A stretch of 64,000 nucleotides of DNA from Candidatus Daviesbacteria bacterium (GCA_016176465.1 JACOXD010000004.1:114119-178118), one strand, 5' to 3'. Counted from the stretch's first letter, positions 48,402 through 64,000 are shown. A program made the numbers and translations. Notes: generated by a model not told the origin, from the sequence alone.

Positions 48402-48488
48402 ATCACATATCCCAAAAATATATTTGATCCATTAATTAATAGTTTCTCTCTCTTTACCTGTTGATAACTTATCCACTAATATAGCTTC
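48402..48488. promoter_or_regulatory. rpmH-dnaA intergenic region with DnaA-box-like 9-mers (oriC part 1 / dnaA promoter)
   Basis: TTATCCACT at about 48466-48474, and TTGATAAC (the complement, TTATCAACA-like) at about 48457-48465. An adjacent AT-rich repeat tract (ATACGAAATATG / ATATGAAATATG) lies at 48330-48400. Confidence 0.45.
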
Positions 48489-49820: not shown

Positions 49821-50002
49821 ATATCCACATTTCCCCTTTAGTTATCCACATACTTTTCCACAATTTTAAAGTATTTTTCAACACGAAAAAAGTTCGAAAT
49901 CTATTCTTAAATTGCTTGGTTTTTAAACTTATGCACATGCTCTATAATAGCTATTACTAATTTGAATATATTATATTTATCTAGAAATAAGTGGACAACT
50001 AA
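49821..50002. promoter_or_regulatory. oriC DnaA-box cluster with an AT-rich unwinding region, between dnaA and dnaN
   Basis: ATATCCACA (49821-49829), TTATCCACA (49842-49850), TTTTCCACA (about 49854-49862), TTATGCACA (about 49928-49936), and an inverted TTGTCCACT (about 49989-49998). These are interspersed with AT tracts (TTTTAAAGTATTTTT, TATAATAGCTATTACTAATTTGAATATATTATATTTAT). Confidence 0.65.
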
Positions 50003-50461
50003 ATGGAAATAAATTGGGTTGTTATTTTATTTATTGTACTTGGGTTGATAATTGCTTATTTAATCGGCAGACTGCAAGCAAAACCAAAATCAAGCGATAT
50101 TCCACAAGATTTCATAGATTTGTATAAACAAGTTGAAGGACTACCTTTAAGAGTTTTACAAACCATTCAAGGCTCAATTAATCCCCAGAAAGGAAAAATG
50201 GCAGAGCTTTTAACCTATGCAGAGCTTAGATATGATTATGATCGGATCATTCCGCTAGGTTGGCCAATTGATTTTATTGGAATTAAAAATAATGAGCGGA
50301 TTGATTTTATAGAAGTTAAATCAGGAAACTTTGCACTCTTGACAGATGAGGAAAAACACATTAAAAACCTTATAGTTAAAGGATCTGTTCATTTTAGATT
50401 AATTAAAGTAACAGAAGAAGAAATTTCTAAATTTATTTCTGCCCAAAAGGAAGGAAATTGA
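50003..50461 (+). CDS. Membrane-anchored PD-(D/E)xK nuclease-fold protein (YraN/Hjc-like), inserted between dnaA and dnaN
   Basis: An N-terminal TM helix (WVVILFIVLGLIIAYLIG). The pattern GKMAELLTYAELRYDYDRIIPLGWPIDFIGIKNNERIDFIEVKSG matches the E...(x)GEiDlia....e..fVEVK.R arrangement of YraN (UPF0102) and Hjc nucleases. Confidence 0.45.
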   Translation: MEINWVVILFIVLGLIIAYLIGRLQAKPKSSDIPQDFIDLYKQVEGLPLRVLQTIQGSINPQKGKMAELLTYAELRYDYDRIIPLGWPIDFIGIKNNERIDFIEVKSGNFALLTDEEKHIKNLIVKGSVHFRLIKVTEEEISKFISAQKEGN

Positions 50462-50477
50462 CAGTAATCAATTAACA

Positions 50478-51587
50478 ATGAAGATTACAATACTCCAGCA
50501 GGATTTGGTTGGTCCTCTCCAGGCAGTTTCCCGCTCAACCGGAAAGAGTAATTTACCAGTGCTTGCTAATATCTTAATCCAAACAGAAGCAGGTAAACTT
50601 AAACTCTCTGCCACTAACTTAGAGATAGGGGTTATAAAAAAAGTTAATGCAAAGGTGGAAGAAGATGGAGAAATCACTGTCCCATCAAGAACCTTTCTTG
50701 ATGTTATAACCTCACTAACAGGTGAAAAAATAACTTTAGAGGGCTCACTTGACCAATTAAAAATTTCTACCAGTAGTTTTAAAGCATCCATTAATGGGAT
50801 CCCAGCTAATGAATTTCCCTCAATTCCTTTAGCATCAGAGCAATCAGTTGTTTTAGATGCTTTTATACTAAAGCAGTCTTTGCCTGAGATTACTTTTGCA
50901 GCAGCTGTTGATGAGGGAAGGCCTATTTTAACTGGAATTTTAACTGAAATAAAAAAGGATTCCCTAGAACTTGTTGCAACAGATGGTTTTAGATTGGCTC
51001 ATAAGAAGGTTAAGATATTAGGAGAAGGGGAGTTTAAAGCTTTAATTCCCAGAAAGACTTTTGAAGAAATTGTTAGGTTAATTGATGAAGATTTAGTAAA
51101 CAGTAAAGAAGAAAAAGTGGAAATGGCAACAGCCGAAGGTCAAAACCAGATTATTTTTAAAATTGGCCAAACTGAACTTTCCTCTCGCTTAATTGAAGGA
51201 AATTTCCCATCCTGGGATAAAATAATCCCAAAAGAGTTTGAAAACAGAACTATTATTGAAAAGGGGGAACTTGCCAAAGCTGTCAAGCTGGCCTCAGTCT
51301 TTGCAAAAGACGTCGCTAATATTATAAAGATCCAAACCAGTGAAAATAAAATTATAGTCTCATCAGAGACAAAGGAGTTAGGTTCACAGGAAAGTGAAGT
51401 TGAATGCCTTGTTGAGGGCTCCCCTTTAATTATTGCTTTTAATGGTCGCTTTTTATCAGACGTACTAGCAGCTTGTTCCACTTCGCAAATTGCCATAGAA
51501 TTTTCCGGATCTTTATCAGCTGCGCTGCTTAAGCCAGTTGGGGAAGAGGGGTTAGAATATATTATTATGCCTGTTCGCTTAACTTAG
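50478..51587 (+). CDS. dnaN: DNA polymerase III beta sliding clamp DnaN
   Basis: MKITILQQDLVGPLQAVSRSTGKSNLPVLANILIQTEAGKLKLSATNLEIGV... with three-domain clamp architecture, in the conserved position after dnaA. Confidence 0.85.
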   Translation: MKITILQQDLVGPLQAVSRSTGKSNLPVLANILIQTEAGKLKLSATNLEIGVIKKVNAKVEEDGEITVPSRTFLDVITSLTGEKITLEGSLDQLKISTSSFKASINGIPANEFPSIPLASEQSVVLDAFILKQSLPEITFAAAVDEGRPILTGILTEIKKDSLELVATDGFRLAHKKVKILGEGEFKALIPRKTFEEIVRLIDEDLVNSKEEKVEMATAEGQNQIIFKIGQTELSSRLIEGNFPSWDKIIPKEFENRTIIEKGELAKAVKLASVFAKDVANIIKIQTSENKIIVSSETKELGSQESEVECLVEGSPLIIAFNGRFLSDVLAACSTSQIAIEFSGSLSAALLKPVGEEGLEYIIMPVRLT

Positions 51588-52051
51588 GCACCCCTATACT
51601 CAATGGTTTTAAAATGGAAAATTACCGGATCGCTTAAGGTTTTATTATTTTCAAACTTGGTACCTACTTGAATATTTAATGTATATCCCTGGCCTAAGGA
51701 AAAAGGATCATTTGGAATAATTTTTAAGGTTTTATTATTATTAGTTAGCTCAACTTTAAAGTCTATATTGGGTTCAATAACTATTCTGGTTTCAGGGATA
51801 TTTACCAAGGGTTGGTTAAAATTAATCTCCAAAGTCTGTGTAGGTAAAATAGTAGCTTCCTCTAGTGGGGAAGGGTTAGTTGAGATAACCTTGGGAGTTT
51901 CATCTTTAGGTTCTTGGTCAGCTGTAATAGGAAAATCTTTAACAGGAGTTTCACTTTTTGAGTAAAGTCCACCTTGGAAAATAGCAATTAGTAAAAGTCC
52001 TAAAACAGTAATTATAATTATTAATGGTTTTTTTAATAAAGAGAATTTCAT
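51584..52051 (-). CDS. Membrane-anchored extracytoplasmic protein (hypothetical), the last gene of the T4SS-like cluster
   Basis: 155 aa with an N-terminal TM helix (LLKKPLIIIITVLGLLLIAIF) and a beta-rich ectodomain. Confidence 0.35.
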   Translation of the reverse strand: MKFSLLKKPLIIIITVLGLLLIAIFQGGLYSKSETPVKDFPITADQEPKDETPKVISTNPSPLEEATILPTQTLEINFNQPLVNIPETRIVIEPNIDFKVELTNNNKTLKIIPNDPFSLGQGYTLNIQVGTKFENNKTLSDPVIFHFKTIEYRGA

Positions 52052-52656
52052 TCTCTGATTAAGTCTTCTTTAATAGGTCCTGATTCATTAATATCCTCAC
52101 CAAATTCTCTAATGTATTTCTCAGCAGTGCTTGGTTTAAATAATTGTATTTCATAAACTTCCTCTGTAAAAGGATTCGCAATCAAGGCAACGCCTTTAGA
52201 GCTATAAATATGAGTTTCGATTAAGGGTCCATATGTCTTAGAGCCTTTTTTGATACTTTCCACTTCGCCAAATCTTTCCTTGAAGTAGGAAAGCTTGACA
52301 TAAGATGGATGATTTGTTTGTTCTGGAATATTTATTCTTTCAAAGATAACTTGGCCATCTTTAACAATTACTTGATCTGGTCTTACAGGATTAATGTAAG
52401 TTTCTAAATTATATTCAACCTTTCCCTCTCCCAGCTCTTTTTTCTCCTTTATTATTAAGTTTTTTTCTATCTCTTGGGAGTTGGTTTTCCCAATTATTGT
52501 TTTTTGTAAATCAGAAATTTTAGGTGGGGTTAAACTCTCTTGTGGTTTTTTTAAAAATATAATTAGTAAAAGTATTAATATTAAAATTAAAAGTAAAACT
52601 AAAATCAATATGAAAACTGGCTTATTTTTAGGTATTAAAAAATAAAATTTATCCAT
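52048..52656 (-). CDS. Membrane-anchored extracytoplasmic protein (hypothetical, in the T4SS-like cluster)
   Basis: 202 aa with an N-terminal TM helix (VFILILVLLLILILILLLIIFL). ATGA overlaps give translational coupling. Confidence 0.35.
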   Translation of the reverse strand: MDKFYFLIPKNKPVFILILVLLLILILILLLIIFLKKPQESLTPPKISDLQKTIIGKTNSQEIEKNLIIKEKKELGEGKVEYNLETYINPVRPDQVIVKDGQVIFERINIPEQTNHPSYVKLSYFKERFGEVESIKKGSKTYGPLIETHIYSSKGVALIANPFTEEVYEIQLFKPSTAEKYIREFGEDINESGPIKEDLIRE

Positions 52657-52657
52657 A

Positions 52658-53401
52658 TTAATAGTTTCCTAATATATAGTTTGCCACATTATAGTGAAGA
52701 GGGAAATCCTCTCTTAAGTTTGGCGGGTGATAATCTGGTGAACAAAGGACTGTTTGCAATTTAGTTTCTGGGTTTAAGTAGTAAGCAATAGTTTCTGCAA
52801 AATCCTCAGAAATGTTATTACTTTTAGTGCATTCATATGCGTGGTTGCCATACCAAGTAACTCCTTTCTCAACCGCATGGGCCCTGAGATAATCTGACCA
52901 GCGAATCTGTTCCCGGTTATTACAGTTTGCAATAACATGGCCTAGTTCGTGGATTAATATTAACTTAAAAAGGGTTTCATCTTGGTAGGTTCCTACGTAT
53001 ACACTAACGCCTTTGAAACATCCCACTTGGGAAGAATCACGAGGGACTGAAGCAAATATTGTTGAGCCACGTACGTAATCAAAAAATTTTGTGTGAGAAA
53101 CATCCCAAAATTTTTCCCAAGCCCAGCGTAAGTGCCTGGTTCCATAATTTCTCATGGTAATTCCAAATTTTTCTTTAATTGCCCCTTCCAATGCAGCATC
53201 AGGAATATCTGGAGCAGTAGCCCTTACTCCTAGCTGAAGGGAGTTAGATACTTGTGGTTTTTGATCTAAGGGAGCATCACCAACCCTGGTGATTACTGGG
53301 TTACTCTTAACTGATTCCTGTGCAAAAACCAAACTAATAGTTGGTGATACTAAAAATGATAATAAAATTAAGATGTAAGTTAGGATTTTCATAATTAACA
53401 A
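52658..53401 (-). CDS. Secreted HExxH zinc metallopeptidase-like protein
   Basis: An N-terminal signal peptide (MKILTYILILLSFLVSPTISLVFAQE) and the LILIHELGHVIANC HExxH motif. Cys-rich. Confidence 0.45.
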   Translation of the reverse strand: MLIMKILTYILILLSFLVSPTISLVFAQESVKSNPVITRVGDAPLDQKPQVSNSLQLGVRATAPDIPDAALEGAIKEKFGITMRNYGTRHLRWAWEKFWDVSHTKFFDYVRGSTIFASVPRDSSQVGCFKGVSVYVGTYQDETLFKLILIHELGHVIANCNNREQIRWSDYLRAHAVEKGVTWYGNHAYECTKSNNISEDFAETIAYYLNPETKLQTVLCSPDYHPPNLREDFPLHYNVANYILGNY

Positions 53402-53973
53402 CCCGGCGCCATCGGATCAAATTTATATCCGCTTCCGCGCAGCTTATTGGAGACTTCAAAATTCAGATAAAATACTGCCGGAACCTGGCAAATCCCCTCA
53501 TCGCTAAAACCTTGTTCTTTAAACCAGCTAACCGTCTCCTCTTTAGCAAGGTCAATATCTGTAGTTAAAATTTCTACCATAAATTCATCCGCTGCTTTTA
53601 CATACTCTACCTTAAAGGTAGAAGTTGTAATTAAAATAGAAGATTGGTTTCCAATTGATGAAAGCAAAGAATCTTTAGCCGCCTGGTCCAAAGAAGAGAG
53701 GGTTTGACGATTTTCTAATCTATCAAGCAATTTTTTGGTCTTTGGGCTTTCATAAGTTATTGGAGGTTGTGTAATTTCTGATGAAGGAGCTGGGGAGAAA
53801 CTTGGAACACTAGATGGCAAGGGAGAAGTTCTCAACTCTTTTTTAGAAAAAAGGCTAGAGATTATTATAAAAACTAACCCTAAGATGGCAATTAATAAAA
53901 TAATTATTAAAATTTTAGTATTTCCAGGAATTAAACTTAGCATCTTATTATCGCCTATACTTATCTTGGGCAC
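53395..53973 (-). CDS. Membrane-anchored extracytoplasmic protein (possible VirB8-like bitopic component)
   Basis: 192 aa with an N-terminal TM helix (ILIIILLIAILGLVFIIISSLF), a Ser/Pro linker and a globular C-domain. The topology matches VirB8-like proteins, but there is no motif evidence. Confidence 0.3.
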   Translation of the reverse strand: MPKISIGDNKMLSLIPGNTKILIIILLIAILGLVFIIISSLFSKKELRTSPLPSSVPSFSPAPSSEITQPPITYESPKTKKLLDRLENRQTLSSLDQAAKDSLLSSIGNQSSILITTSTFKVEYVKAADEFMVEILTTDIDLAKEETVSWFKEQGFSDEGICQVPAVFYLNFEVSNKLRGSGYKFDPMAPGC

Positions 53974-55713
53974 AGGCCCAGTAACCCCAGGTTCTACCTT
54001 TGGTTGCTAAGAAATTATTGTAATTGATTGCATTAGTCGTTTGTAAGGTCCAAACCACATCTCCATGGTCATACTGGCCATTTCTTCCTCTGCCCATCTG
54101 ATAAAGTCCCCATGCACCTTGCGGATCAGGTGACCCACTGAAGAAATCATTTGGGTTATAACTACTTTCACAAGGGATAATTACATTAAACCAGAAATAA
54201 GCGTTAGTTGGATCATTTTGCTCTATGAGGGTATATAAATCATCTTTAGTAAAATTACATTGGGGGTCACCATAATTTTGCCCCAATGGGTTATTTAACT
54301 TATACCTTCCACTACATGTGTCATTATTTGCAGGAACATTTCCGGTAGTTGGAATGGTTCCAGCTCCACTAGTTGAGGTTATCTTTGCATCAGCACTGTT
54401 TACTACCCAAATATTATCATCAAGTGGGGCAACAACTAAAGCTAGTTGTTTAGTTTGACCTGAGGAAAGAGAGAATTGCCAGGTGACCACCTTACCTCTG
54501 CATTATCAGGGATAATATCTGTTACCTCAATATTAGCTATTCCTTGACCTAGGTATCCAACATTAATTGTGTATACAATAGGTTGTCCATTAGCAACCGC
54601 TCCATCAACCCCCCCTGGCCCTGTTTTAGAAATTGCTAATTGTTTGGAAGAAGATAGATTTTGGCCAGGAACTCCTCCTCCAAAAAGATTTAAAAGCATT
54701 GCCCCAAAAATTATCAAAAAAAGTAATCCTATAAAAAGTAGAGCTAATCTTTTATCAGCGATGGTCCTGGTTGGACCAAAGCGCCTAAACCTTCCAAAAA
54801 ACCGCCCTCCATTCCCTAGAAGTCTACCTCTTCCTGAGAAAATTCTTCCCAGATTAATATTTGGCCGCCAGGAGAACATATTTCTTAAAGGCATCCTAAA
54901 AGTTCTGGAGCTACCACTACTGCCTCTAAGGATGCCCATAAAACCTAAAATTCGATTACTAAAAAAAGCACCGCCTAATCCGCCAATGGCAGCGCCACCC
55001 CAGCTTCCGACTATTCCACCCATGACTGCCCCAGCACCGCCAGTCCATAAAGCAGGCTTACTTAAGATTTTTTTAAATGGAACAGTGTTAATTTTATTGA
55101 GAGGAATTTTAGAGAGGAGGTTGCTACTTCTTTGAAAAAAACTCCCTAAATTTTGCCTAATATTAATTGGTGCTCGCGGAATAGGACTTGGAGCAGGAGG
55201 CGAAGAAGGAGTAGGTGTTGTTGGAGTTGGAGGTTGACTCGGTTGGGGCTGAGGAGGGCTGGCGGGTGGCTGTGGAGGTTGTTGGGGAGGAAAGGGGGCT
55301 TGGTGGGGGAGGCTTGCTGGTGCAGAAGCTCCTCCATGAGATGGAGTAGGAGATGGTGTTTCTTGTTGTGACTGCTGGGCTAACTCAGCTTGTTCTGCCT
55401 CTGCTTCTTGTCTAAATTGCTCAATAACCTCTTTTGGCTCCTCAATTACTTTATTGGAATTCCAAATTTCATTTAGGTCAGGATCATTTCTTGCATAAGC
55501 AGTAGCAACAGTATCAATATAGCCTTCAGTTGTTGGCAAAACCTTAAATTTTGCTGGTAGAAATCTCTTGGAGTATTTAACAGCTAATTTTCGTGAAATG
55601 CGAGATGGAAACCCAGGGATGTTTAGGCTCCTAAATTGATCCTGCTTATTTTTATGAAACCTTAAAATTACGTTTAAAAGTGCTTTATGTAAACTAAACT
55701 GGACTAAAGCCAT
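53948..55713 (-). pseudogene. Surface protein with a Pro-rich region, a TM helix, a DUF11 conserved-repeat domain and a C-terminal VirB1-like lytic transglycosylase (SLT) domain. It is interrupted by a -1 frameshift at about 54442-54490 (track ORFs 54442..55713 and 53948..54490).
   Basis: Upstream ORF: PQQPPQPPASPPQPQPSQPPTPTTPTPSSPPAPSP, a Gly-rich segment, the TM LALLFIGLLFLIIFGAMLL, then a DUF11-like IVYTINVGYLGQGIANIEVTDIIPDNAEV. The DUF11 unit continues in the -1 frame as VVTWQFSLSSGQTKQLALVVAP. Downstream: SLT motifs CESSYNPN (ES), GAWGLYQM (GLMQ-like) and NAINYNN (AYN-like). Confidence 0.5.
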
Positions 55714-55715
55714 TT

Positions 55716-57497
55716 TTATCCTCCTTTAATTAAATCCTCAGGGTTAGCGGTTATTAACTGGTGCTCCTCAGGGGAAGCAATTACAGACATCGCAACATGT
55801 GTTGGCCCGGCAAAAAATAACCCCTGGCCTACCCCAGCAGATAATAAAAGCCTCATCTCTCCCTCTGATAGATTAAATACTTCCCCAATGCGTTCAATTG
55901 AGGCAGGGCTTTGTTTTAATAGAATTTGAATTGATGAATTAGAGATAATCTCTTTTCCCCGATCTCCTCCTAAGAAATCCTCTACATCTTGAGTAATGGT
56001 TGTTACTCCCAAAAAATATTTCCTTGCTCTTTTAGCAATTTCTACTAAAAAATCAGCTGAGTCAGGATTTTTCATCATATACCAGGCCTCATCTACAACC
56101 AGCAATCTTTTTTTACGCTTAATCCTGATTTTAGTCCAGATATAATCTAGTATTAGATACATAGCTAGCGGCCGCAGCTGATCTGCTAAATCCCTGACAG
56201 AAAATACAGTTAAAGAGTTAGATAAATCAATATTTGAAGGAGCGGAAAAAATCCCAGCCAGCGATCCTTTAATAAACCTCTCTAGTCTAAAATTTAATTC
56301 CAATGCTTGAGGTTCTTCCATACCAGCTAAAACTTTGTACAAATCTTCCATCAAAGGAGGTGGGTTTTTTTGAGTTTTTGGATCAGGGGTAATGCCTTTT
56401 AATCTATAGGTAGTAGTTATTGCTCTATCGAGTATTGCTGCTTGCCCGGCATCTAAACTTCCCAGCACTAATTTTAAAAACCCGGTTAATGATAAAATCT
56501 TTCTACCCAACTCATTTTCACCAGTCATGGCAACAGATGATAAATCAAAAGGGTTAATTTTAATTGGGGAATCAGATGAGAAATTAATATAATTTCCACC
56601 AATGGCTTTAGATAAACTTAGATACTCTTGTTCAGGATCAATTACTATAGCATCTGTCCCAAACATTAAAGAACGCAGCGTTTCTAATTTTACTAAATAT
56701 GATTTTCCCGCGCCTGACTTGGCGAAGATCGTACTGTTCCCATTCTCTAAACTAAACCTGTCAAAAATAATTAGTGAATCATTGTGCTCATTAATTCCAT
56801 ACATTATTCCCTCATTAGCAGTTAGTTCTGAGGAGGTAAATGGAAAAGTAGTAGCTAGGGATGTAGTATCCATATTATGGTTAAGAAGTAAAAGGTCTGC
56901 TCCTAAAGGTAGTGTTGAGATAAAAGAGTCCTCCATCTGCAAGGTTAGAGGATAAGCGTTTATGGAAAGTGAAGCTAGGGTGGATTGTAAAATCTTTGAG
57001 GTATTATCCAGTTCTTCTTTGGAGCTTGAAGGTAGTGTAATATATAACCCCAATTGGAAAAATCTTTCCGCCCCTCTGGCTAGTTGATCTTGCAGCGCTC
57101 TGGCATCATCCAAGGAAACTTGAACTGAAGGGTCTATATCCCTACCTCTTTCCAAATCAGTTTGGATGGTTGCTTCCATTTCAGCAATCTTTCTTTTTAG
57201 ATCATCCAAAATATCTTTTGAGGTAGATGGATAAATAAACATGGAAATATTTAACGAATGATCAAAAGATACTAGTGGTTCAAGCCAGTTTGGGCCAATA
57301 TAACGAGGGTAGCCTGCCACAAAAAAAGAACGAAAATATGTAGTGTTGATTCTTAAATGATTAAAATCAATCTCCATATCTTTAGGAGATAAAACATCAA
57401 CCAAAGAGACTGAATTGTTCACTGTTAATGGCGCATTGTTAATAGAAGTACTTTGAGTTTTTTTAGGCTTAATAAGATCAAGTAAAGGTATTTTCAT
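55716..57497 (-). CDS. VirB4/TraE/PrgJ-family type IV secretion ATPase (C-terminal ATPase domain)
   Basis: Walker A FAKSGAGKSYL, Walker B RLLVVDEAWYMM, and a length of 593 aa. Overall collinear with the CagE/TrbE/VirB4 C-terminal region. Confidence 0.75.
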   Translation of the reverse strand: MKIPLLDLIKPKKTQSTSINNAPLTVNNSVSLVDVLSPKDMEIDFNHLRINTTYFRSFFVAGYPRYIGPNWLEPLVSFDHSLNISMFIYPSTSKDILDDLKRKIAEMEATIQTDLERGRDIDPSVQVSLDDARALQDQLARGAERFFQLGLYITLPSSSKEELDNTSKILQSTLASLSINAYPLTLQMEDSFISTLPLGADLLLLNHNMDTTSLATTFPFTSSELTANEGIMYGINEHNDSLIIFDRFSLENGNSTIFAKSGAGKSYLVKLETLRSLMFGTDAIVIDPEQEYLSLSKAIGGNYINFSSDSPIKINPFDLSSVAMTGENELGRKILSLTGFLKLVLGSLDAGQAAILDRAITTTYRLKGITPDPKTQKNPPPLMEDLYKVLAGMEEPQALELNFRLERFIKGSLAGIFSAPSNIDLSNSLTVFSVRDLADQLRPLAMYLILDYIWTKIRIKRKKRLLVVDEAWYMMKNPDSADFLVEIAKRARKYFLGVTTITQDVEDFLGGDRGKEIISNSSIQILLKQSPASIERIGEVFNLSEGEMRLLLSAGVGQGLFFAGPTHVAMSVIASPEEHQLITANPEDLIKGG

Positions 57498-57500
57498 ATC

Positions 57501-58271
57501 TTAATCCTCTAGTTCCTCAACAACAAATGGTGTAGTAGTTCTTGGTTCACTAGGATAAGCTATCGGTGCTGTTTTTGGTGTAGTAGTTGCCTGAGGGCTA
57601 GTTATTGGAGGTGTTGAGGGTTGAGTTGTTGCCATCTGAGCAGGTGGATTAGGGGTAGAAAGTGAAGAAGCGAGGGGTAAGTTTAAATTAGTTGATTCAA
57701 CTTCTAAAACAGTTTCTTGAAATTCACTAGGGTTATAAATATCATAAAATAATTCAATTAACTTAGCACTGTTTAATTGCTGCGCTCGCAAGCCTATTCT
57801 CCATAATTGACGGATAATATGGTCTCGCCTTGGAATTAAAATAGTCAAAGCTTTTTGGCTGTTTTTGGTACTATTTTTTGTTAAGCCAAGTTCTAGATAA
57901 GAGAGGGGAATGATTATAAAAAATTGTTTATCCAAAACATCATTTTCTTTTACTGTTTGGGAGATAAAATTTTTATACCTTAAAATCATTGATGCAAGTA
58001 AGGGGTTACTTTGTTTTTTGTGTGCCTCTTCAAGCTTTTCCAAATAAGAGGTGACATTTAATCTTTTAGACCTAATCATAATTTGAATTGAAAAAGAAAG
58101 TGAGTTTAAAAGTCCGGCAAAACCGCTAATGATAGAAAGCTGTTCTCGCTCAGATAGTAAGCCAAAGTTAACAGCGCTTGTCTCCAATATAAGTGCTAAG
58201 CTAGAATCTTTTAAAATGACTAAATCACCTTGGATATCTTGGATTGGTAAATGTTCTTGAGTAGTAGCCAT
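57501..58271 (-). CDS. VirB4 N-terminal-domain-like protein (a separate ORF immediately upstream of the ATPase ORF), with a Pro/Thr-rich C-terminal tail
   Basis: LPIQDIQGDLVILKDSSLALILETSAVNFGLLSEREQLSIISGFAGLLNSLSFSIQIMIRS matches the N-terminal pattern of Gram-positive VirB4 homologs (ip.~~i~dgii~~kdGsy~kil~v~~iN~~L~s~~E). A TAA stop and a 3-nt spacer precede the ATPase ORF. Confidence 0.45.
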   Translation of the reverse strand: MATTQEHLPIQDIQGDLVILKDSSLALILETSAVNFGLLSEREQLSIISGFAGLLNSLSFSIQIMIRSKRLNVTSYLEKLEEAHKKQSNPLLASMILRYKNFISQTVKENDVLDKQFFIIIPLSYLELGLTKNSTKNSQKALTILIPRRDHIIRQLWRIGLRAQQLNSAKLIELFYDIYNPSEFQETVLEVESTNLNLPLASSLSTPNPPAQMATTQPSTPPITSPQATTTPKTAPIAYPSEPRTTTPFVVEELED

Positions 58272-58308
58272 AATAATAGTTAATAGTTCACAGTTAATAG
58301 TTTATTGT

Positions 58309-59490
58309 TCATAGATTTTTGGCATGGATACTTATAGGAGGAATTACTTTTCCATCAAGCGTTATCTCTAAAGTGTCAAAGTAAAATCCTTCTTTTTCAA
58401 GGGTAATTGTGTAAGTTCCATTAGGTAGGGGTGTTGCCGCTAAGAATTGGCCTAATTTGTTTGATTTTAGGGCTCTAACGGGTAATCCTTGCTTATCATG
58501 GGTTACAATAATTACGCCATCCAAATAATTACCCTGGTTATCAGTTACTATCCCATTAATACTATTGGGTGTGGAAGTTAAAGTGATCTTAGTATCTTTG
58601 CTTGATGCAAGCTCTGGTGCTACTACTACTTTTTTGGGAGTAGGGCTAATTGGGGTTTGGGCAAGCAAAGCTAATTTATGGGAGATTTCTGCTTGCTGAT
58701 TATTTAATGCTGACAAAGTTTCTAAAGCTAGTTGAAGCTGTGCAGCAAAATAGGTAGTATTAGTACCTGGTTGGACAGCCGCAGCTTTTATGCGGTTAAT
58801 CAAATTTTGCGTTTCTATAATTTTAGTTTGGATAATTTGAGCTTGCTTGGCTAGCTCCACTTCCAAATGTAGTTGTTCACTGCTAGGCAAATGGGGAGGC
58901 ATAAAAGTTTTTGGTACCTCAGGAGGAATTTGTGGTTGAGAGAGAGTTGAGGGTTGTTTTGGAGGAGTTGTTAGGGGAGGAGTAATGGGCTGGTTAATAG
59001 CTTGAGGGGCAGGGATATTAATAGTTGAAGCGGTAGGAGTGTTTACAGGTGAGACTGTAGCAGTTATTGGAGCTGCTTGCTGGTCAAACCTAGCTATGGT
59101 TGTTATTTTAGGAGTAGTTGAGTTTTGAGGTCTTGGGGCAAAACTTAAGAGGTAATAAGCTAAGCGGTTTTTAAAAAACAATTCATCTTTTTTAATGTTT
59201 TTAGATTGCCAGGTTCTTTTTGTTGGATTAAATATTGCTTTAAAAAAAGTTATTGCCCAATGATCTAGAGGTCTTTCATAAATGGGTAAAAAAGCAAAAG
59301 CTGCTCCAAATGAAGCTGAGATTATAATAATAGGCCAGGCAATTAAAGGAAGCTTAGGAGCAATTAAAATAAAAGTTAAATAAGCAGTTGCGAGTCCTGC
59401 TGCCAGATAAAGAAACTGCTTTAGTGTCATATCGCCAACTAGATGAAATTCAAATTGGCTGACATTTTTAGGTACAGGGTGTCCGTCCAT
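58309..59490 (-). CDS. PrgI/VirB3-like two-TM membrane protein with a Pro/Thr-rich linker, a coiled coil and a C-terminal carboxypeptidase-regulatory-like beta-sandwich domain
   Basis: The N-terminus FEFHLVGDMTLKQFLYLAAGLATAYLTFILIAPKLPLIAWPIIIISASFGAAFAFLP shows the PrgI-family hairpin topology. The C-terminus GIVTDNQGNYLDGVIIVTHDKQGLPVRALKSNKLGQFLAATPLPNGTYTITLEKEGFYF is a CarboxypepD_reg-like fold. Confidence 0.45.
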   Translation of the reverse strand: MDGHPVPKNVSQFEFHLVGDMTLKQFLYLAAGLATAYLTFILIAPKLPLIAWPIIIISASFGAAFAFLPIYERPLDHWAITFFKAIFNPTKRTWQSKNIKKDELFFKNRLAYYLLSFAPRPQNSTTPKITTIARFDQQAAPITATVSPVNTPTASTINIPAPQAINQPITPPLTTPPKQPSTLSQPQIPPEVPKTFMPPHLPSSEQLHLEVELAKQAQIIQTKIIETQNLINRIKAAAVQPGTNTTYFAAQLQLALETLSALNNQQAEISHKLALLAQTPISPTPKKVVVAPELASSKDTKITLTSTPNSINGIVTDNQGNYLDGVIIVTHDKQGLPVRALKSNKLGQFLAATPLPNGTYTITLEKEGFYFDTLEITLDGKVIPPISIHAKNL

Positions 59491-59639
59491 AACACAACAA
59501 GCTTATAATGTGAAAATTTTACTGTCCAGCCACTCAAAATAGATCATTTTCCACACAATATCTTGGATCTTGAAAAACTTAACTAAACCCTATACGCTAA
59601 GTAATAACTAAATACTTAAAGGATAGATTGGATCAGACC

Positions 59640-59820
59640 AATCTTTAATCAGGGGAAAAGCGATGACCCGCTTCGCAGCGAGGCGAGAATTTCGCTGTTG
59701 TGCCGCAACCGTATAACCGGACTGCCTGAATCCTTTTTCTCTTCGAGCAAAGAGTCCGCAAGAAGCGGATGGGTTTACCAACTTAAACCTCCTCGAAGGG
59801 GGTATTTTTTTGCTAAAAAT
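59640..59820. repeat. GC-rich repeat-derived leader region. It contains partial copies of the hairpin-element family (gcgatgacccgcttcgcagcgaggcgag) and a GATTGG-N6-CCAATC inverted repeat.
   Basis: It shares AGCGAGGCGAG and CGCTTCGC cores with 7095-7120. The track ORF start at 59698 lies in this repeat (MCRNRITGLPES...), so the true start of the downstream gene is probably ATG 59821. Confidence 0.45.
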
Positions 59821-61098
59821 ATGAAAGAATCCCTTGCTCAAACCCCACATTATTTAGGGGAAAATTCTATATTAGATGGGACAGGCTTTGATTTATATAA
59901 AGAAGTCCAAAGATTTTTTTTAAACTTAAATCAAGCTAACAATCCTACACCTGAGCTTGAAGCTAATATTAGAACTTATGTAGTGGAATATATCTTTAAC
60001 GGAACAGTAATACCTCATTTAGTTGATCAAGACGGCGAGGGAAATGTAATTAACAGCTATGACAAACAAAGAATAGTTAATAAAATTACCCCAAGTGAAA
60101 GAAGAGGTGTAATTTTAAGAGCTTCAGAAAAAATTGATGAGTTTTTTAGGAATTTGAGAAGAACAGGCAGAAAAGGTCTTGCAGCAGTCAATAGTCCTGA
60201 AGGTTGGACAGGAATGAGAGATAGTGAAGGAGACTTAATTGAATATGTTAATCATCAAATCCCCATTTTTTGGACGAGGGAGGATAAAAGGTTTAGGGGT
60301 TTAACTTTAGTAACTGATTTAACGCCTGAGCAATCAAAACAATTATCAATTAACTTAGGAATTAATGAGATAAAGTTATCAAGACAAGGTGAGGATTTAA
60401 TTTGCGATATTGTGGAAAACCCAGCAACATTTAGTTATCCAAGATCCCGAATTAAAACACCAGAAGATGTTTTCCAAGAGATCTTAAGAGTTAGAGGCTC
60501 TGGTGATTTTGCCTTTAAACAACAGGATGGGTCTATAAAGTATGTACCTGTTAAAAAGATGCTTGAGGATATTAGAAGGTTTGATGAGCTGCTTGAGTTT
60601 AGTGAAGAGATAGAAGTATATATTGCAAATTTAAAACAGTTTATTTTAGATAATACAATAGATTTTAAAAATCATTTTACTCAAAAAAGATTAGTGAGTG
60701 AAATAGAAAGAACAATTCTGAAAATAACAAGGGTAACTCTTATATCAAGTACAAATGTCATCCTGACCCGCCTGGGCGGGGAAGGATCCACAAAATTAGA
60801 TTCTTCGCCTTCGGCTCAGAATGACAAACACGCTTTGAATGACAATGATTATTTTCCATCTCCAGATAATTTTAAAAAAGAGATTGCTTATTTAAAGATG
60901 CAAGCAGGCTGTGCTGGAGGGGGTAAAGGAAAAAGAAAGGTTTTACTATCTGATAGTGCTAAAGTTTTAGAAAATTTAAACTCTTTTGGGGTTGGTAAAG
61001 GAAGAAGGTGTAAAATGTGTGGGGAGATAAATTATTGTAGTGAGAGTTGCTGGAAAGAGGATTGTGGTGGAGATTTGGATTTTGCAGCTGCAGCATAA
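59821..61098 (+). CDS. Hypothetical protein with a C-terminal Cys-rich zinc-ribbon-like motif. It carries an internal hairpin-element insertion (60745-60818).
   Basis: MKESLAQTPHYLGEN... and a C-terminal CKMCGEINYCSESCWKEDCGGD (C-x2-C...C-x3-C-x4-C). The segment TNVILTRLGGEGSTKLDSSPSAQNDKHAL is encoded by the bipartite GC-rich element. Confidence 0.45.
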   Translation: MKESLAQTPHYLGENSILDGTGFDLYKEVQRFFLNLNQANNPTPELEANIRTYVVEYIFNGTVIPHLVDQDGEGNVINSYDKQRIVNKITPSERRGVILRASEKIDEFFRNLRRTGRKGLAAVNSPEGWTGMRDSEGDLIEYVNHQIPIFWTREDKRFRGLTLVTDLTPEQSKQLSINLGINEIKLSRQGEDLICDIVENPATFSYPRSRIKTPEDVFQEILRVRGSGDFAFKQQDGSIKYVPVKKMLEDIRRFDELLEFSEEIEVYIANLKQFILDNTIDFKNHFTQKRLVSEIERTILKITRVTLISSTNVILTRLGGEGSTKLDSSPSAQNDKHALNDNDYFPSPDNFKKEIAYLKMQAGCAGGGKGKRKVLLSDSAKVLENLNSFGVGKGRRCKMCGEINYCSESCWKEDCGGDLDFAAAA

Positions 61099-61133: not shown

Positions 61134-61335
61134 TCAAGTATCTGCTTTATATTTTATCTCTGCAACGTCAAAAAGACTTAACCCCTTTGGCAATTCTACT
61201 AAAATATCAATATCACTGTCTTCTTTTGCTTCTCCTCGCACATACGAACCAAAGAGAACAGAACGAGTCACTCCCGCCTCTTTTGGGTGAAAAGATGCAT
61301 TTGAAGCTAGCTTAGGGTATAATTTAAAAACAATG
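61134..61335 (-). pseudogene. Truncated MNT-type (Pol-beta-like) nucleotidyltransferase gene fragment without a start codon
   Basis: The minus strand encodes ...IVFKLYPKLASNASFHPKEAGVTRSVLFGSYVRGEAKEDSDIDILVELPKGLSLFDVAEIKYKADT*, which contains the GS-x9-DxD minimal-NTase motif (LFGSYARGEA.EDSDIDLLV). There is no in-frame ATG. The 137-aa track ORF extends antisense through the Pro-rich 5' end of the large plus-strand gene. Confidence 0.4.
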
Positions 61336-64000
61336 GCTGATGGACCTGCCAATAAAGAAGCCGACGGAAACAATGCACCGCCTGAACCCCAAGCAGGTGC
61401 GACTCCAATTGTTCCTTTAAGACCTCCTGGTTCACTAGGTGGATTTAGAAGAGGACCAGTAACTTTAGGGCCTCCAACAGAGCCTGTTACTGAAGCCCCG
61501 GATGCTGAGCCAGAAGAGGAGGAAGAAACAGCTCCATCCCAACCCATACCCCCTTCAGTGACTCCTCCTGAAGTAGTACCAAGTCCACCAGTTGCTTCCC
61601 CTTGGTGGAAAGATGCAGAACCTACTCCAGTTGCGCCTCTTGTCGCTCCACCCCTTATTCCTCCCAGTGGAGGACCTCCAGCCCCTCCTATTCCACCTAC
61701 TGGACCTCTCCCAGAAGAAGCTGGTGATGGGAAATATGAACCGGCTACTCCTTTATCTGAAATGCAAAGACAATATAATTTCCAACATATTCTAAGAGAA
61801 ATTCAGTATGTTGAGGCTACATATCCTGATGCAACCACAAGGCCGGCCGAATGGCAATCTTCTTATGAAGAGGCATTATACTTAAGGGACGCTTATTTAC
61901 AAGATGCTCAAAATAGAAATTTGTTTGCTGACTTACAAAGAGAACTCGATTTTAGCTATGTTGAATTACAAAATGAGTTCTCTCAAAACCCAGCAGCAGG
62001 TTTTCGTTTGGTTAGGAAATTAAGACAGCAAGATGTTGAAGGGGGTATTTGGAGAGATCCCAGATTTGCTGGATTCAAGAGCTGGGGAGAAGGTATCCCA
62101 GATATATATTGGCATACTGGCATAAATAGAATACTACAAGCTTTGGAAGGAAATCCAGCTACTGCTTTTGCTGCTTGGGAATGGCAATCTCCTGCTCTGA
62201 CACCGGAACAAAAGAAAGCTTCCGAAATTCCCCGTGGCAGCTCAGAGTTTAAAGAATTAATGAAAAAAATTAATATTCTTTCTAGAAAATTGTTGTCAAA
62301 AACTATCCCTGTGGATATTAGAATCCAACTAGAGACAGAGCTTACTCAAGCAAAAGAGGCTCGAGATAAACTTGTTGTTGAAGCGAACGACCTAGGTCTA
62401 ATTAGTAATGAATTAAAATGGTTTTTATATAGCCGCTGGAGGTATTTTAGAATCAGGTTGCCTTTGGATCAAAGAAGGGATGAATTTGAACAATATAAAA
62501 ATGATGCTAAACTAAGATCACAAGAAAACCCAGCATTTTGGGAGCAAAATATGGGAGAAAATGGAGAAGATCTTTTTGTTAAGTATGGGGGAGTTATTGA
62601 TTACTTTTGGCAGGAAGGTTGGGATTTAATGGGTTTAGCTATTTTTAAAGATAGATGGGATGATTTTTCTAAAAAAGTTCAGGAGTCAGCAGTGGGTAAA
62701 ATTTGGAATATAGAGGATTTGAAGGGAAATCCAGTAGTAGGAGTAGAGGCTATAAAAAATCTGATTGAAAAAATCAGAATATCTAGAAAACGGTATGCTT
62801 ATTCGCGTGAACGAATAGGTAGTCTAGTTCCTCTAGTCGATGATATTGATGAGCTTCCGGATGTAGTCCTGGATTACTTTAGAAGATCAGCAAAGGCTTT
62901 AGGTAAGGCTAGAATAGATGTACTAATTCAAAATATTGAGCAAAAGAAAAACACTGAGGGGGCAACTTTATTTGATGAATTTTTGCAACTTTTTCCAGAG
63001 TATGAAAATGACCCCCGGGTAGAGCGAGCTCAGGCTTTGATGAATGCAATGTTTAGTATGTTTGGGGCTGAAGCTATTGCTGGAAAAGGTAAAGAAGCAT
63101 GGCCAGGATTTTTCCATTTCTTAAAAGATTTTGTTCAAGATTGGCAAAGCAATTTTGATGCGTTATATTTCAAGCCATTAGTTGCAAGAGCTTTGTATTT
63201 ATTTGCTCAAAACGATGGCGAGTATTTTCGGTTAGGTGCGGTTAGTGAAGAAGATCCTGAACTAGGAGAAATGGAGGCTTTTAAAAAAGCTAAAAAAAGA
63301 GAATTTGTTGAGGATCTAGTAAGACATAAATTAAGAGGTACTAAAGATTTACTAAATAATCATCCTGTTTTCCAACGTTTAAAGAAAAAATTGGATGATT
63401 TAGATAGAAATGATCCAGACTACAATAGTCCAGATTTTGTACCCAGATGGGAAGAATATACCCAAAAAGCCTTGGCAGCTGCCAGCATGAAAACAGCTGC
63501 AGAACAAGCCATACGTGGTGAGGGAGTTGAGGAGCTAGTTGATGAGAAAGAGGAACGAATTAAATTTGAACATGTATTAGCTAGATCTTTAACTGAGGCA
63601 GAATTTGAGGCTATGTATGAAGAAATACAGATACAAGATGTAGAGGATTTTGCAGCAAAGAAGAAAGAAGCAACAGAGGCTGTTGCTATAGCAGAAAGGA
63701 TGATGATTGTTTTAGGTCCAGGAAACAGATTTGCTGGACCCAGGTTAAAGCCCGATGGTGGTGGATTAAAACTAATGTCTGCTGAGGTAAGAGGCAGACT
63801 AGTTCGCTATCTTGAACTTGATGCGAAGAGACCCGTAGATCAGCAAGTATTTAGAGTTACTCATACTTTACATAAATTGGGAATTCATACAACCTTGCCG
63901 GTCTTTAATATGTTTCATCTAGGGGCAGATGACCCAATCCGAACCGCCTTTGAAAAGCATCTTGATAAAAGTGGATTTGATGTAAGTGGAATGAGATGGA
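61333..64000 (+). CDS. Large hypothetical protein with a Pro-rich disordered N-terminus (more than 889 aa, continuing beyond the window end)
   Basis: A continuous open frame from ATG 61333 to the window end. It is absent from the track because it has no stop in the window. The N-terminus is MADGPANKEADGNNAPPEPQAGATPIVPLRPPGS...PPAPPIPPTGPLPEE, followed by a helical, Trp/Tyr/Glu-rich domain. Confidence 0.55.
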   Translation, partial: MADGPANKEADGNNAPPEPQAGATPIVPLRPPGSLGGFRRGPVTLGPPTEPVTEAPDAEPEEEEETAPSQPIPPSVTPPEVVPSPPVASPWWKDAEPTPVAPLVAPPLIPPSGGPPAPPIPPTGPLPEEAGDGKYEPATPLSEMQRQYNFQHILREIQYVEATYPDATTRPAEWQSSYEEALYLRDAYLQDAQNRNLFADLQRELDFSYVELQNEFSQNPAAGFRLVRKLRQQDVEGGIWRDPRFAGFKSWGEGIPDIYWHTGINRILQALEGNPATAFAAWEWQSPALTPEQKKASEIPRGSSEFKELMKKINILSRKLLSKTIPVDIRIQLETELTQAKEARDKLVVEANDLGLISNELKWFLYSRWRYFRIRLPLDQRRDEFEQYKNDAKLRSQENPAFWEQNMGENGEDLFVKYGGVIDYFWQEGWDLMGLAIFKDRWDDFSKKVQESAVGKIWNIEDLKGNPVVGVEAIKNLIEKIRISRKRYAYSRERIGSLVPLVDDIDELPDVVLDYFRRSAKALGKARIDVLIQNIEQKKNTEGATLFDEFLQLFPEYENDPRVERAQALMNAMFSMFGAEAIAGKGKEAWPGFFHFLKDFVQDWQSNFDALYFKPLVARALYLFAQNDGEYFRLGAVSEEDPELGEMEAFKKAKKREFVEDLVRHKLRGTKDLLNNHPVFQRLKKKLDDLDRNDPDYNSPDFVPRWEEYTQKALAAASMKTAAEQAIRGEGVEELVDEKEERIKFEHVLARSLTEAEFEAMYEEIQIQDVEDFAAKKKEATEAVAIAERMMIVLGPGNRFAGPRLKPDGGGLKLMSAEVRGRLVRYLELDAKRPVDQQVFRVTHTLHKLGIHTTLPVFNMFHLGADDPIRTAFEKHLDKSGFDVSGMRW

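Follow-up and report, generated by a model that had tools for sequence, protein, structure and literature searches.

A probable Patescibacteria-type type IV secretion locus beside dnaN in a Candidatus Daviesbacteria genome

In a survey of 2,474 Patescibacteria virB4 genes, Quinonero-Coronel et al. (2025) described a distinct VirB4 clade related to MPF_FATA; in the corresponding type IV secretion system (T4SS) loci TrsD is the commonest partner, PrgI/VirB3 homologues and arrays of VirB2-like pilins occur, relaxases are nearly absent and genes for the type IV coupling protein (T4CP) mostly lie distant from virB4 (PMC12102498). The same study found the virB4 locus adjoining dnaA/dnaN in Microgenomatia and Paceibacteria. 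In Southlakia epibionticum, transposon sequencing (Tn-seq) showed the T4SS cluster to be essential for epibiotic growth, and the system is without recognizable coupling and relaxase proteins (Wang et al., 2023; PMC10633639). Reviews regard the role of these systems as unknown, with effector delivery and nucleotide acquisition as the proposed functions. Here, we analyzed a 64,000-nt stretch of DNA from a Candidatus Daviesbacteria bacterium (GCA_016176465.1, JACOXD010000004.1:114119-178118; hereafter, the window) that carries a minus-strand gene cluster ending at dnaN. A prediction made earlier from the sequence alone had taken this cluster for a T4SS-derived envelope machine next to oriC and not for a conjugative element. 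Our results bear this out in its main lines: the cluster is very probably the membrane and energizing half of a chromosomal Patescibacteria-type T4SS that derives from the MPF_FATA group and has lost its link to DNA-transfer genes.

The cluster consists of eight tightly packed, co-directional minus-strand genes running from 59490 down to 51584, with open reading frames (ORFs) where the original prediction had placed them. As assembled there are nine ORFs, owing to one split gene discussed below, and the eight genes are separated by 37, 3, 2, 4, 2, 1, and -4 nt. The first product, ORF1 (58309-59490, minus strand), is a PrgI/VirB3-like membrane protein, an assignment that draws on its match to Pfam PrgI (E 6.8e-9; 36.6 bits, where the gathering cut-off is 27), its two N-terminal hydrophobic helices (residues 26-44 and 49-67) and its position. 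PrgI is the VirB3 equivalent of enterococcal pCF10. Behind the helices of ORF1 come a Pro/Gln-rich linker and a C-terminal beta-sandwich resembling CarboxypepD_reg (E 9.8e-7, below that family's Pfam cut-off). This 300-aa extension (residues about 95-393), which includes a probable coiled coil, does not occur in classical PrgI/VirB3 proteins and is present in the related locus L003; basic residues past the second helix suggest that it is cytoplasmic, which would be odd for a CarboxypepD_reg-like domain.

The next two genes belong together. ORF3 (55716-57497, minus strand) is a VirB4-family ATPase of the MPF_FATA-like type: it matched the NCBIfam model conju_CD1110 with E 8.7e-113 and 378 bits (cut-off 325) over model positions 168-733, VirB4_plasma over positions 292-893, and Pfam P-loop_TraG (1.2e-25), AAA_10 and DUF87, while the MPF_T and MPF_F models scored far lower than conju_CD1110. 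Its translation shows a Walker A (AKSGAGKS) and a Walker B motif (LLVVDE). ORF2 (57501-58271, minus strand), which lies directly upstream, is TrsD-like and carries the VirB4 N-terminal domain as an ORF of its own. It matched VirB4_plasma over positions 104-290 (E 1.6e-7), CD1110 over positions 19-173 (1.2e-4), NCBIfam TrsD over positions 14-200 of 201 (8.6e-7; 29 bits, the cut-off being 200) and, in Pfam, TraC_F_IV (3e-4). None of these scores reached the curated cut-offs. Since ORF2 and ORF3 match consecutive stretches of the same VirB4 models, they form the two halves of one complete VirB4 ATPase; the original prediction had named a VirB4 N-domain ORF and a VirB4 ATPase. TrsD and VirB4 are apparently fused in loci L038 and L062. 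A search with the ATPase returned 7997 homologues, the matches listed being 71-81% identical and the named ones among them from Daviesbacteria, and its close homologues are proteins of Daviesbacteria and other Microgenomates. An NCBI protein under the name Candidatus Daviesbacteria bacterium is 100% identical to it, so that the window belongs to a Patescibacteria (Microgenomatia) genome. The original prediction had allowed that VirB4-, PrgI- and SLT-type matches might be lacking or that the ATPase might be of an unrelated kind; VirB4 and PrgI matches were obtained in the window and SLT matches, as described below, at the level of the family.

To place the cluster among its relatives, we compared 80 species-representative loci whose VirB4 is 56-79% identical, together with two long contigs; counts are given over 84 loci. 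The PrgI-TrsD-VirB4 triad was present in 77, with TrsD as a separate ORF and the PrgI-like gene directly upstream. In 65 of the 84, dnaN/dnaA lies 0-8 kb downstream, so that the gene order seen in the window recurs across several Microgenomatia lineages; these genes are either convergent, as in the window, or co-directional with dnaA directly after virB4. In all 59 loci having all five genes, VirB4 was more conserved than both DnaA and DnaN, with median identities to the window proteins of 59% (VirB4), 40% (DnaA), and 35% (DnaN). Conservation of VirB4 above that of the replication proteins is consistent with a core function that is inherited vertically. Between virB4 and dnaN, genomes differ in gene content and in length, from 0 to about 6 kb.

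The proximity to the origin is also borne out. The last gene of the cluster overlaps dnaN by 4 nt and dnaA is 1.8 kb away. Four DnaA boxes, ATATCCACA, TTATCCACA (perfect), TTTTCCACA, and TTATGCACA, fall within the 117 nt of 49821-49937, between dnaA and the next gene, and mark the probable oriC; two further boxes are found at 48459-48477, and the cumulative GC skew reaches its minimum near 47-49 kb. Boxes and skew together place the cluster about 1.7 kb from the probable origin. At the junction itself the stop codons of the last cluster gene and of the convergent dnaN overlap (51584-51587), which leaves no space for a terminator. The same 4-nt convergent stop overlap was seen in L005 (17713-17716).

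Given this setting, one could take the cluster for an integrated conjugative element that landed beside the origin by chance and has decayed. The closest curated models (CD1110, TrsD, PrgI) are indeed conjugation proteins of Firmicutes elements, and the hydrolase gene is frameshifted in the window's assembly. That frameshift, however, is not found in an independent assembly from a sister run, the gene order beside dnaN/dnaA is shared by the 65 loci described above, and VirB4 exceeds DnaA and DnaN in conservation wherever they could be compared. Pfam scans of the cluster, its flanks and all window ORFs of at least 370 aa revealed no relaxase or coupling protein, in agreement with the original prediction, and no integrase, and the 64-kb window contains no tRNA; the ORFs scanned were housekeeping genes except for one of 473 aa without a Pfam match. 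The base composition of the cluster is like that of its surroundings apart from a Pro-rich segment. We therefore strongly disfavor a decayed element, which we regard as very improbable. The synteny of the triad with dnaN, the conservation of VirB4 and the lack of relaxase, coupling protein, integrase, and tRNA indicate instead a vertically inherited core system.

Directly after virB4 comes the gene that is split in the window (53948-55713, minus strand). ORF4 (54442-55713) and ORF5 (53948-54490) share 49 nt, and their junction falls within a DUF11 domain. Logan contig L086, assembled from sister run SRR12113424, is 100% identical to the window over 4.2 kb save for 31 extra bases, TACCTGTTTCAGCTAGTGAGGGAAAAGTTAT (coding strand), whose absence between window positions 54498 and 54497 frameshifts the gene. 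With these bases L086 has a single ORF of 598 aa, and a representative protein (P0149) is likewise intact at 598 aa. The 31 bases in an independent contig thus merge ORF4 and ORF5 and bring the true gene count to eight, the number given in the original prediction. On the same evidence we rejected both programmed frameshifting and a genuine two-gene arrangement. The loss of the segment may have arisen in assembly or may reflect variation within the population.

The restored protein is bitopic. Its N-region, ~320 aa long, is hydrophilic and Pro-rich; a Gly-rich stretch, a single transmembrane (TM) helix (323-341), DUF11, and a 125-aa C-terminal domain follow. The original prediction had described it as a DUF11 protein with a lytic transglycosylase domain, and this description holds for the family more clearly than for the window copy, in which DUF11 is weak (E 0.0025, as against 1.4e-13 in the L005 homologue) and the C-terminal domain (53948-54340) has no Pfam match. 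The family of this domain comprises 491 representatives among 1.84 billion proteins; of the 150 matches listed, almost all carry the domain at the C-terminal end or close to it. Ten of 38 diverse members matched Pfam SLT (PF01464) at E<=0.01 (best 2.7e-5), and others matched phage tail lysozyme or C-type lysozyme. Two motifs, C107-E108-S109 and G128-L129-x-Q131-M132, are invariant in close homologues and nearly so family-wide. When single sequences and profiles of ORF5 to ORF8 were compared with Protein Data Bank (PDB) sequences, the only match of note was that of the deep ORF5-domain profile to lysozyme C (E 0.039), in which the conserved C-E-S and GLFQM motifs were aligned and the Glu of C-E-S fell on the E-S of lysozyme C. 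The structure model of the domain was poor (predicted local distance difference test score, pLDDT, of 52) and gave no significant fold match, so that for the window copy the assignment is made at family level. At that level, the family's sequence matches lead us to accept the C-terminal domain as SLT/lysozyme-like. A resuscitation-promoting-factor (Rpf-like) label, considered on the basis of the motifs, was set aside, since the family's Pfam matches favor SLT.

A protein of this plan is the rule among relatives of the convergent type. Directly after virB4, 39 such loci have a gene for a protein of 410-1210 aa, and 38 of these proteins share a hydrophilic N-region of 250-650 aa, one or more central hydrophobic or TM segments and a C-terminal head; the C-terminal region is at least 190 aa long in 34 of the 39. 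The heads themselves differ, with Peptidase_M23 in seven loci, CHAP in three, C39-like domains in two, DUF11 in two, and an SLT-like domain in the window, L005, and L039. A zincin of the type encoded by ORF7 (see below) is fused to the post-VirB4 protein in L009, L011, and L012, and to M23 in P0147. Thus, the heads of the bitopic post-VirB4 protein are swapped between lineages on a constant scaffold. We claim a shared architecture here and not homology of the N-regions, since low-complexity sequence rich in Pro and Gly may inflate the jackhmmer matches among the latter. Separately, CHAP-like and amidase-like translations were recognized by eye between virB4 and dnaN of L005.

Beyond the post-VirB4 gene, four genes for anchored or secreted proteins complete the cluster. 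ORF6 (53395-53943, minus strand) encodes an N-terminally anchored protein of 182 aa with two conserved Cys residues and a TM helix (residues 21-39, numbered on the long ORF); it has no match in Pfam or PDB, and homologues directly follow the SLT-type post-VirB4 protein in L005 and L039. ORF7 (52658-53392, minus strand; locus tag HYS91_01735) is the metalloprotease recognized in the original prediction. It combines an HExxH motif, a downstream Glu ligand, and a zincin fold, and is predicted to be a secreted zinc metalloprotease with a gluzincin fold like that of anthrax lethal factor and the Pro-Pro endopeptidases (PPEPs). No Pfam family, ATLF (MEROPS M34) included, matched it at E<=0.1, and what it shares with these enzymes is accordingly a fold and a zinc site. 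Its identity to PPEP-2, PPEP-3, and the catalytic domain of lethal factor is 12-16%, and unlike these proteins the ORF7 domain forms part of a cassette linked to a T4SS, some genomes encoding it as a fusion with the post-VirB4 protein. ORF8 (52048-52656, minus strand), a 202-aa protein anchored by a TM helix at residues 15-33, possibly has a BamE/SmpA-like ectodomain: five of nine members of its family matched BamE weakly (best E 0.0014), and no PDB match was found. Homologues occur in 9-11 loci and are the final gene before dnaN in seven (L022, L028, L047, L052, L054, L062, and L084). The last gene, ORF9 (51584-52051, minus strand), encodes an N-terminally anchored (TM residues 10-28) bacterial Ig-like protein matching Pfam Big_5 (6.1e-8, 33.8 bits against a cut-off of 23.6), with homologues in 18 loci, mostly adjoining dnaN.

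One may ask whether the hydrolase, the protease and the small anchored proteins belong to the secretion system at all, or are ordinary wall-maintenance genes that happen to follow virB4. The variable length of the virB4-dnaN region would suit the latter, as would the loci in which virB4 directly abuts dnaN or dnaA and the finding that VirB1 homologues are rarely linked to virB4 outside Paceibacteria (PMC12102498). We nevertheless consider this improbable. The unusual architecture shared directly after virB4 by the 39 convergent-dnaN loci is difficult to reconcile with unrelated housekeeping functions, and in the window the genes are separated by spacers of only 1-4 nt. Moreover, membrane-anchored multi-domain hydrolases are standard in Gram-positive T4SSs (PrgK, pIP501 TraG, TrsG; PMC12102498), and the peptidase and lysozyme genes after virB4 in S. 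epibionticum are essential (as reported in PMC12102498). By analogy with PrgK, TraG of pIP501, and TrsG, the post-VirB4 region would function as a membrane-anchored modular wall-hydrolase cassette.

A further, more speculative reading is that the virB4-dnaN stretch is a diversification hot spot, in which a conserved T4SS-integrated scaffold, made of a long hydrophilic and presumably cytoplasmic N-region and a TM helix, carries interchangeable heads that act on the host envelope and not on the cell's own wall, and so set host range. The heads may be SLT-like, M23, CHAP, C39-like, or lethal-factor-like zincin domains, and some may have been split off into separate secreted proteins, as in the window. 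We put this forward tentatively and consider it unlikely as a whole; if true, the effector arm long sought for the Patescibacteria T4SS would be the virB4-dnaN cassette.

The original prediction implied that the cluster was complete, and in this respect it has to be revised. Arrays of VirB2-like pilin genes (Pfam T4SS_pilin) lie 4-10 kb upstream of virB4 in relatives, in the same orientation, and at the same distance at least 20 loci encode a conserved protein of ~600 aa with 7-8 TM helices upstream of the triad, a VirB6 candidate without a Pfam match. Pilin array and polytopic gene occupy 27-2210 in L003 and about 1-4193 in L005; in L001 and L003, large divergently transcribed genes separate them from the PrgI gene. 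Projected onto the window, the pilin and VirB6-candidate genes would be expected at or beyond position 64000, where the sequence ends, so that the original prediction covered one half of the locus.

Several observations weigh against reading the cluster as part of a working secretion system. No VirB2-like pilin was found in the window by phmmer or by jackhmmer with the L003 pilin, nor did any window sequence match the 7-8-TM VirB6 candidate of the relatives. None of the eight cluster proteins is polytopic, each having at most two hydrophobic segments, and none has the at least five TM helices of a VirB6-like protein. Completeness of the system in this genome is thus assumed from relatives, the pilin and VirB6-like genes not having been found in the window. 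The small anchored proteins have the predicted bitopic topology of VirB8-like components and gave no match to VirB8, PrgL, or TraM in Pfam or PDB profile searches. The hydrolase gene is disrupted in the window's assembly, and the SLT assignment of its product comes from family-level evidence. A coupling protein could be encoded elsewhere, as many T4CP homologues are far from virB4 (PMC12102498). Finally, the role of the T4SS in Saccharibacteria has been called "completely unknown" (PMC11665869). A Patescibacteria-type T4SS nevertheless remains the favored interpretation by a wide measure.

From established T4SS biology, such a machine might work as follows. PrgI would tether a VirB4 hexamer at the membrane, while the bitopic hydrolase, and probably the protease as well, would open the wall locally, be it the cell's own or that of the host. 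Through the opened wall, a channel and a VirB2-like pilus, with genes upstream and beyond the window, could extend to the host cell. The apparatus could then serve an epibiotic lifestyle through protein export or macromolecule exchange and not through conjugation. Its position beside oriC would be an inherited trait of the lineage, possibly one that raises expression.

It is also conceivable that the same machine works inward, as Helicobacter ComB and archaeal Ced do, and supplies a cell that cannot make nucleotides with nucleic acids or other macromolecules from its host. The T4SS has been proposed as a route of nucleotide acquisition in S. epibionticum, where comEC is dispensable and the T4SS essential (PMC11665869), and a 2026 preprint (10.64898/2026.06.21.733656) describes a cultivated parasitic bacterium that takes up host RNA and has interface tubules that may be T4SS pili. 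The window VirB4 also weakly matches the archaeal DNA-import ATPases CedB (3.8e-12) and CedD, as would be expected for any VirB4-family member; these scores, however, are far under the family cut-offs. Hidden Markov model (HMM) scans of the window revealed no component linked with the cluster that would bind or process DNA or RNA, and the direction of transport is not readable from sequence. We consider import unlikely.

Upstream of the PrgI gene, a divergent intergenic region of 207 nt (59491-59697) is the sole sizeable non-coding gap and, judging from its position, the probable promoter region of the operon. A promoter and terminator scan of the cluster returned 42 promoter-like sites against 36 expected from shuffles, with none listed in this gap. 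On its far side, 59698-61098 (plus strand) encodes a soluble protein of 466 aa, divergent from the PrgI gene, with a Cys-rich C-terminus and a weak zf-MYND-like match (E 0.007); a homologue was found only in L007 (33%), and a gene of similar size (459 aa) has the same position in L001. Another divergent ORF starts at 61333 (plus strand) and runs off the end of the window at 64000; its product of more than 880 aa has a Pro-rich N-terminus, no Pfam match and no hydrophobic segment, and shows weak similarity (25% over 267 aa, E 2.8e-7) to its positional counterpart of 1362 aa in L001. In relatives, proteins at this position measure 1362-1645 aa. Opposite this ORF, 61134-61547 (minus strand) resembles a fragment of a truncated MNT-type gene, its last ~45 residues matching the start of NTP_transf_2 (2.6e-11); the remainder arises from reading the Pro-rich part of the large plus-strand ORF in reverse complement.

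On the other side of the cluster, the gap between dnaA and dnaN holds an unusual occupant, a 152-aa gene (50003-50461, plus strand) whose product has an N-terminal TM helix and an Endonuc_Holl domain, a relative of archaeal Holliday-junction resolvases. It is kept at that spot in nine Daviesbacteria-type loci with 53-79% identity. Farther away, 39954-42902 (minus strand) encodes a 982-aa protein combining an NAD-dependent epimerase/dehydratase with DUF4012; it stands among polysaccharide-synthesis genes (Wzy_C, Polysacc_synt) just upstream of rnpA/rpmH. The comparison also turned up the candidate phyla radiation (CPR)-type locus in many species-representative metagenome-assembled genomes titled "uncultured Gammaproteobacteria", "uncultured Pseudomonadales", "Nevskiaceae", and "Candidatus Methanoperedens" (L006, L009, L016, L019-L021, L028-L032, L077, and others), in which either the titles are wrong or placeholders or the bins are contaminated.

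The original prediction presented the locus as a novelty. The same conclusion, including the position beside dnaA/dnaN and the lack of a relaxase, has already been published (PMC12102498; PMC10633639). What this study adds is modest: a constant scaffold with swapped heads, a PPEP/lethal-factor-like protease in the cassette, the conservation of VirB4 above that of DnaA and DnaN, and the 31-bp deletion. The points on the cassette and on conservation suggest candidate substrates and assays, and are incremental.

Among classical systems, enterococcal pCF10 (Prg/Pcf, with PrgI, PrgJ, and PrgK) and pIP501 (Tra, with TraG) resemble the Daviesbacteria cluster in having the PrgI family, VirB4, and a membrane-anchored multi-domain peptidoglycan hydrolase beside the ATPase. 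In contrast to them, the window carries no adhesin, relaxase, or T4CP, and its hydrolase has a hydrophilic N-region of 320 aa before the TM helix and a head made of DUF11 and a divergent SLT-like domain. The Trs system of staphylococcal pGO1/pSK41 is closer in one respect, being the only classical subclass with a separate TrsD beside VirB4 (PMC12102498), and it likewise has a VirB3-like protein and a wall hydrolase (TrsC-TrsD-TrsE, TrsG). It differs in being plasmid-borne and conjugative, with relaxase and coupling protein, and the TrsD match in the window is weak (29 against 200 bits).

Closer still are the Patescibacteria systems. That of S. epibionticum ML1 (SEML1_0006-0019) is also chromosomal; its subunits are Gram-positive-like, a recognizable relaxase or coupling protein is lacking, and virB4 is followed by peptidase and lysozyme genes. 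From its low locus tags we infer that it, too, lies near the genome start. It belongs to the class Saccharimonadia and has its pilin array inside the cluster, whereas in the relatives of the Daviesbacteria locus large divergently transcribed genes separate pilins and polytopic protein from PrgI, and it is the sole member with functional data. The Patescibacteria clade surveyed by Quinonero-Coronel et al. agrees with the window in its MPF_FATA-related VirB4, adjoining TrsD ORF, PrgI/VirB3, lack of a relaxase, and position beside dnaA/dnaN (PMC12102498). Two differences concern linkage: in that survey only 22.6% of Microgenomatia homologues showed VirB3 linked to virB4, and linkage of VirB1 was rare, while we found a PrgI-like gene directly before TrsD-VirB4 in 77 of 84 loci and a hydrolase-bearing protein after virB4 in most convergent-type loci. 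These differences probably reflect search sensitivity and not biology. The Patescibacteria T4SS is thought to be central to life on other cells, and the locus of this uncultivated Daviesbacteria bacterium adds one more clean example of it, leaving the general picture unchanged.

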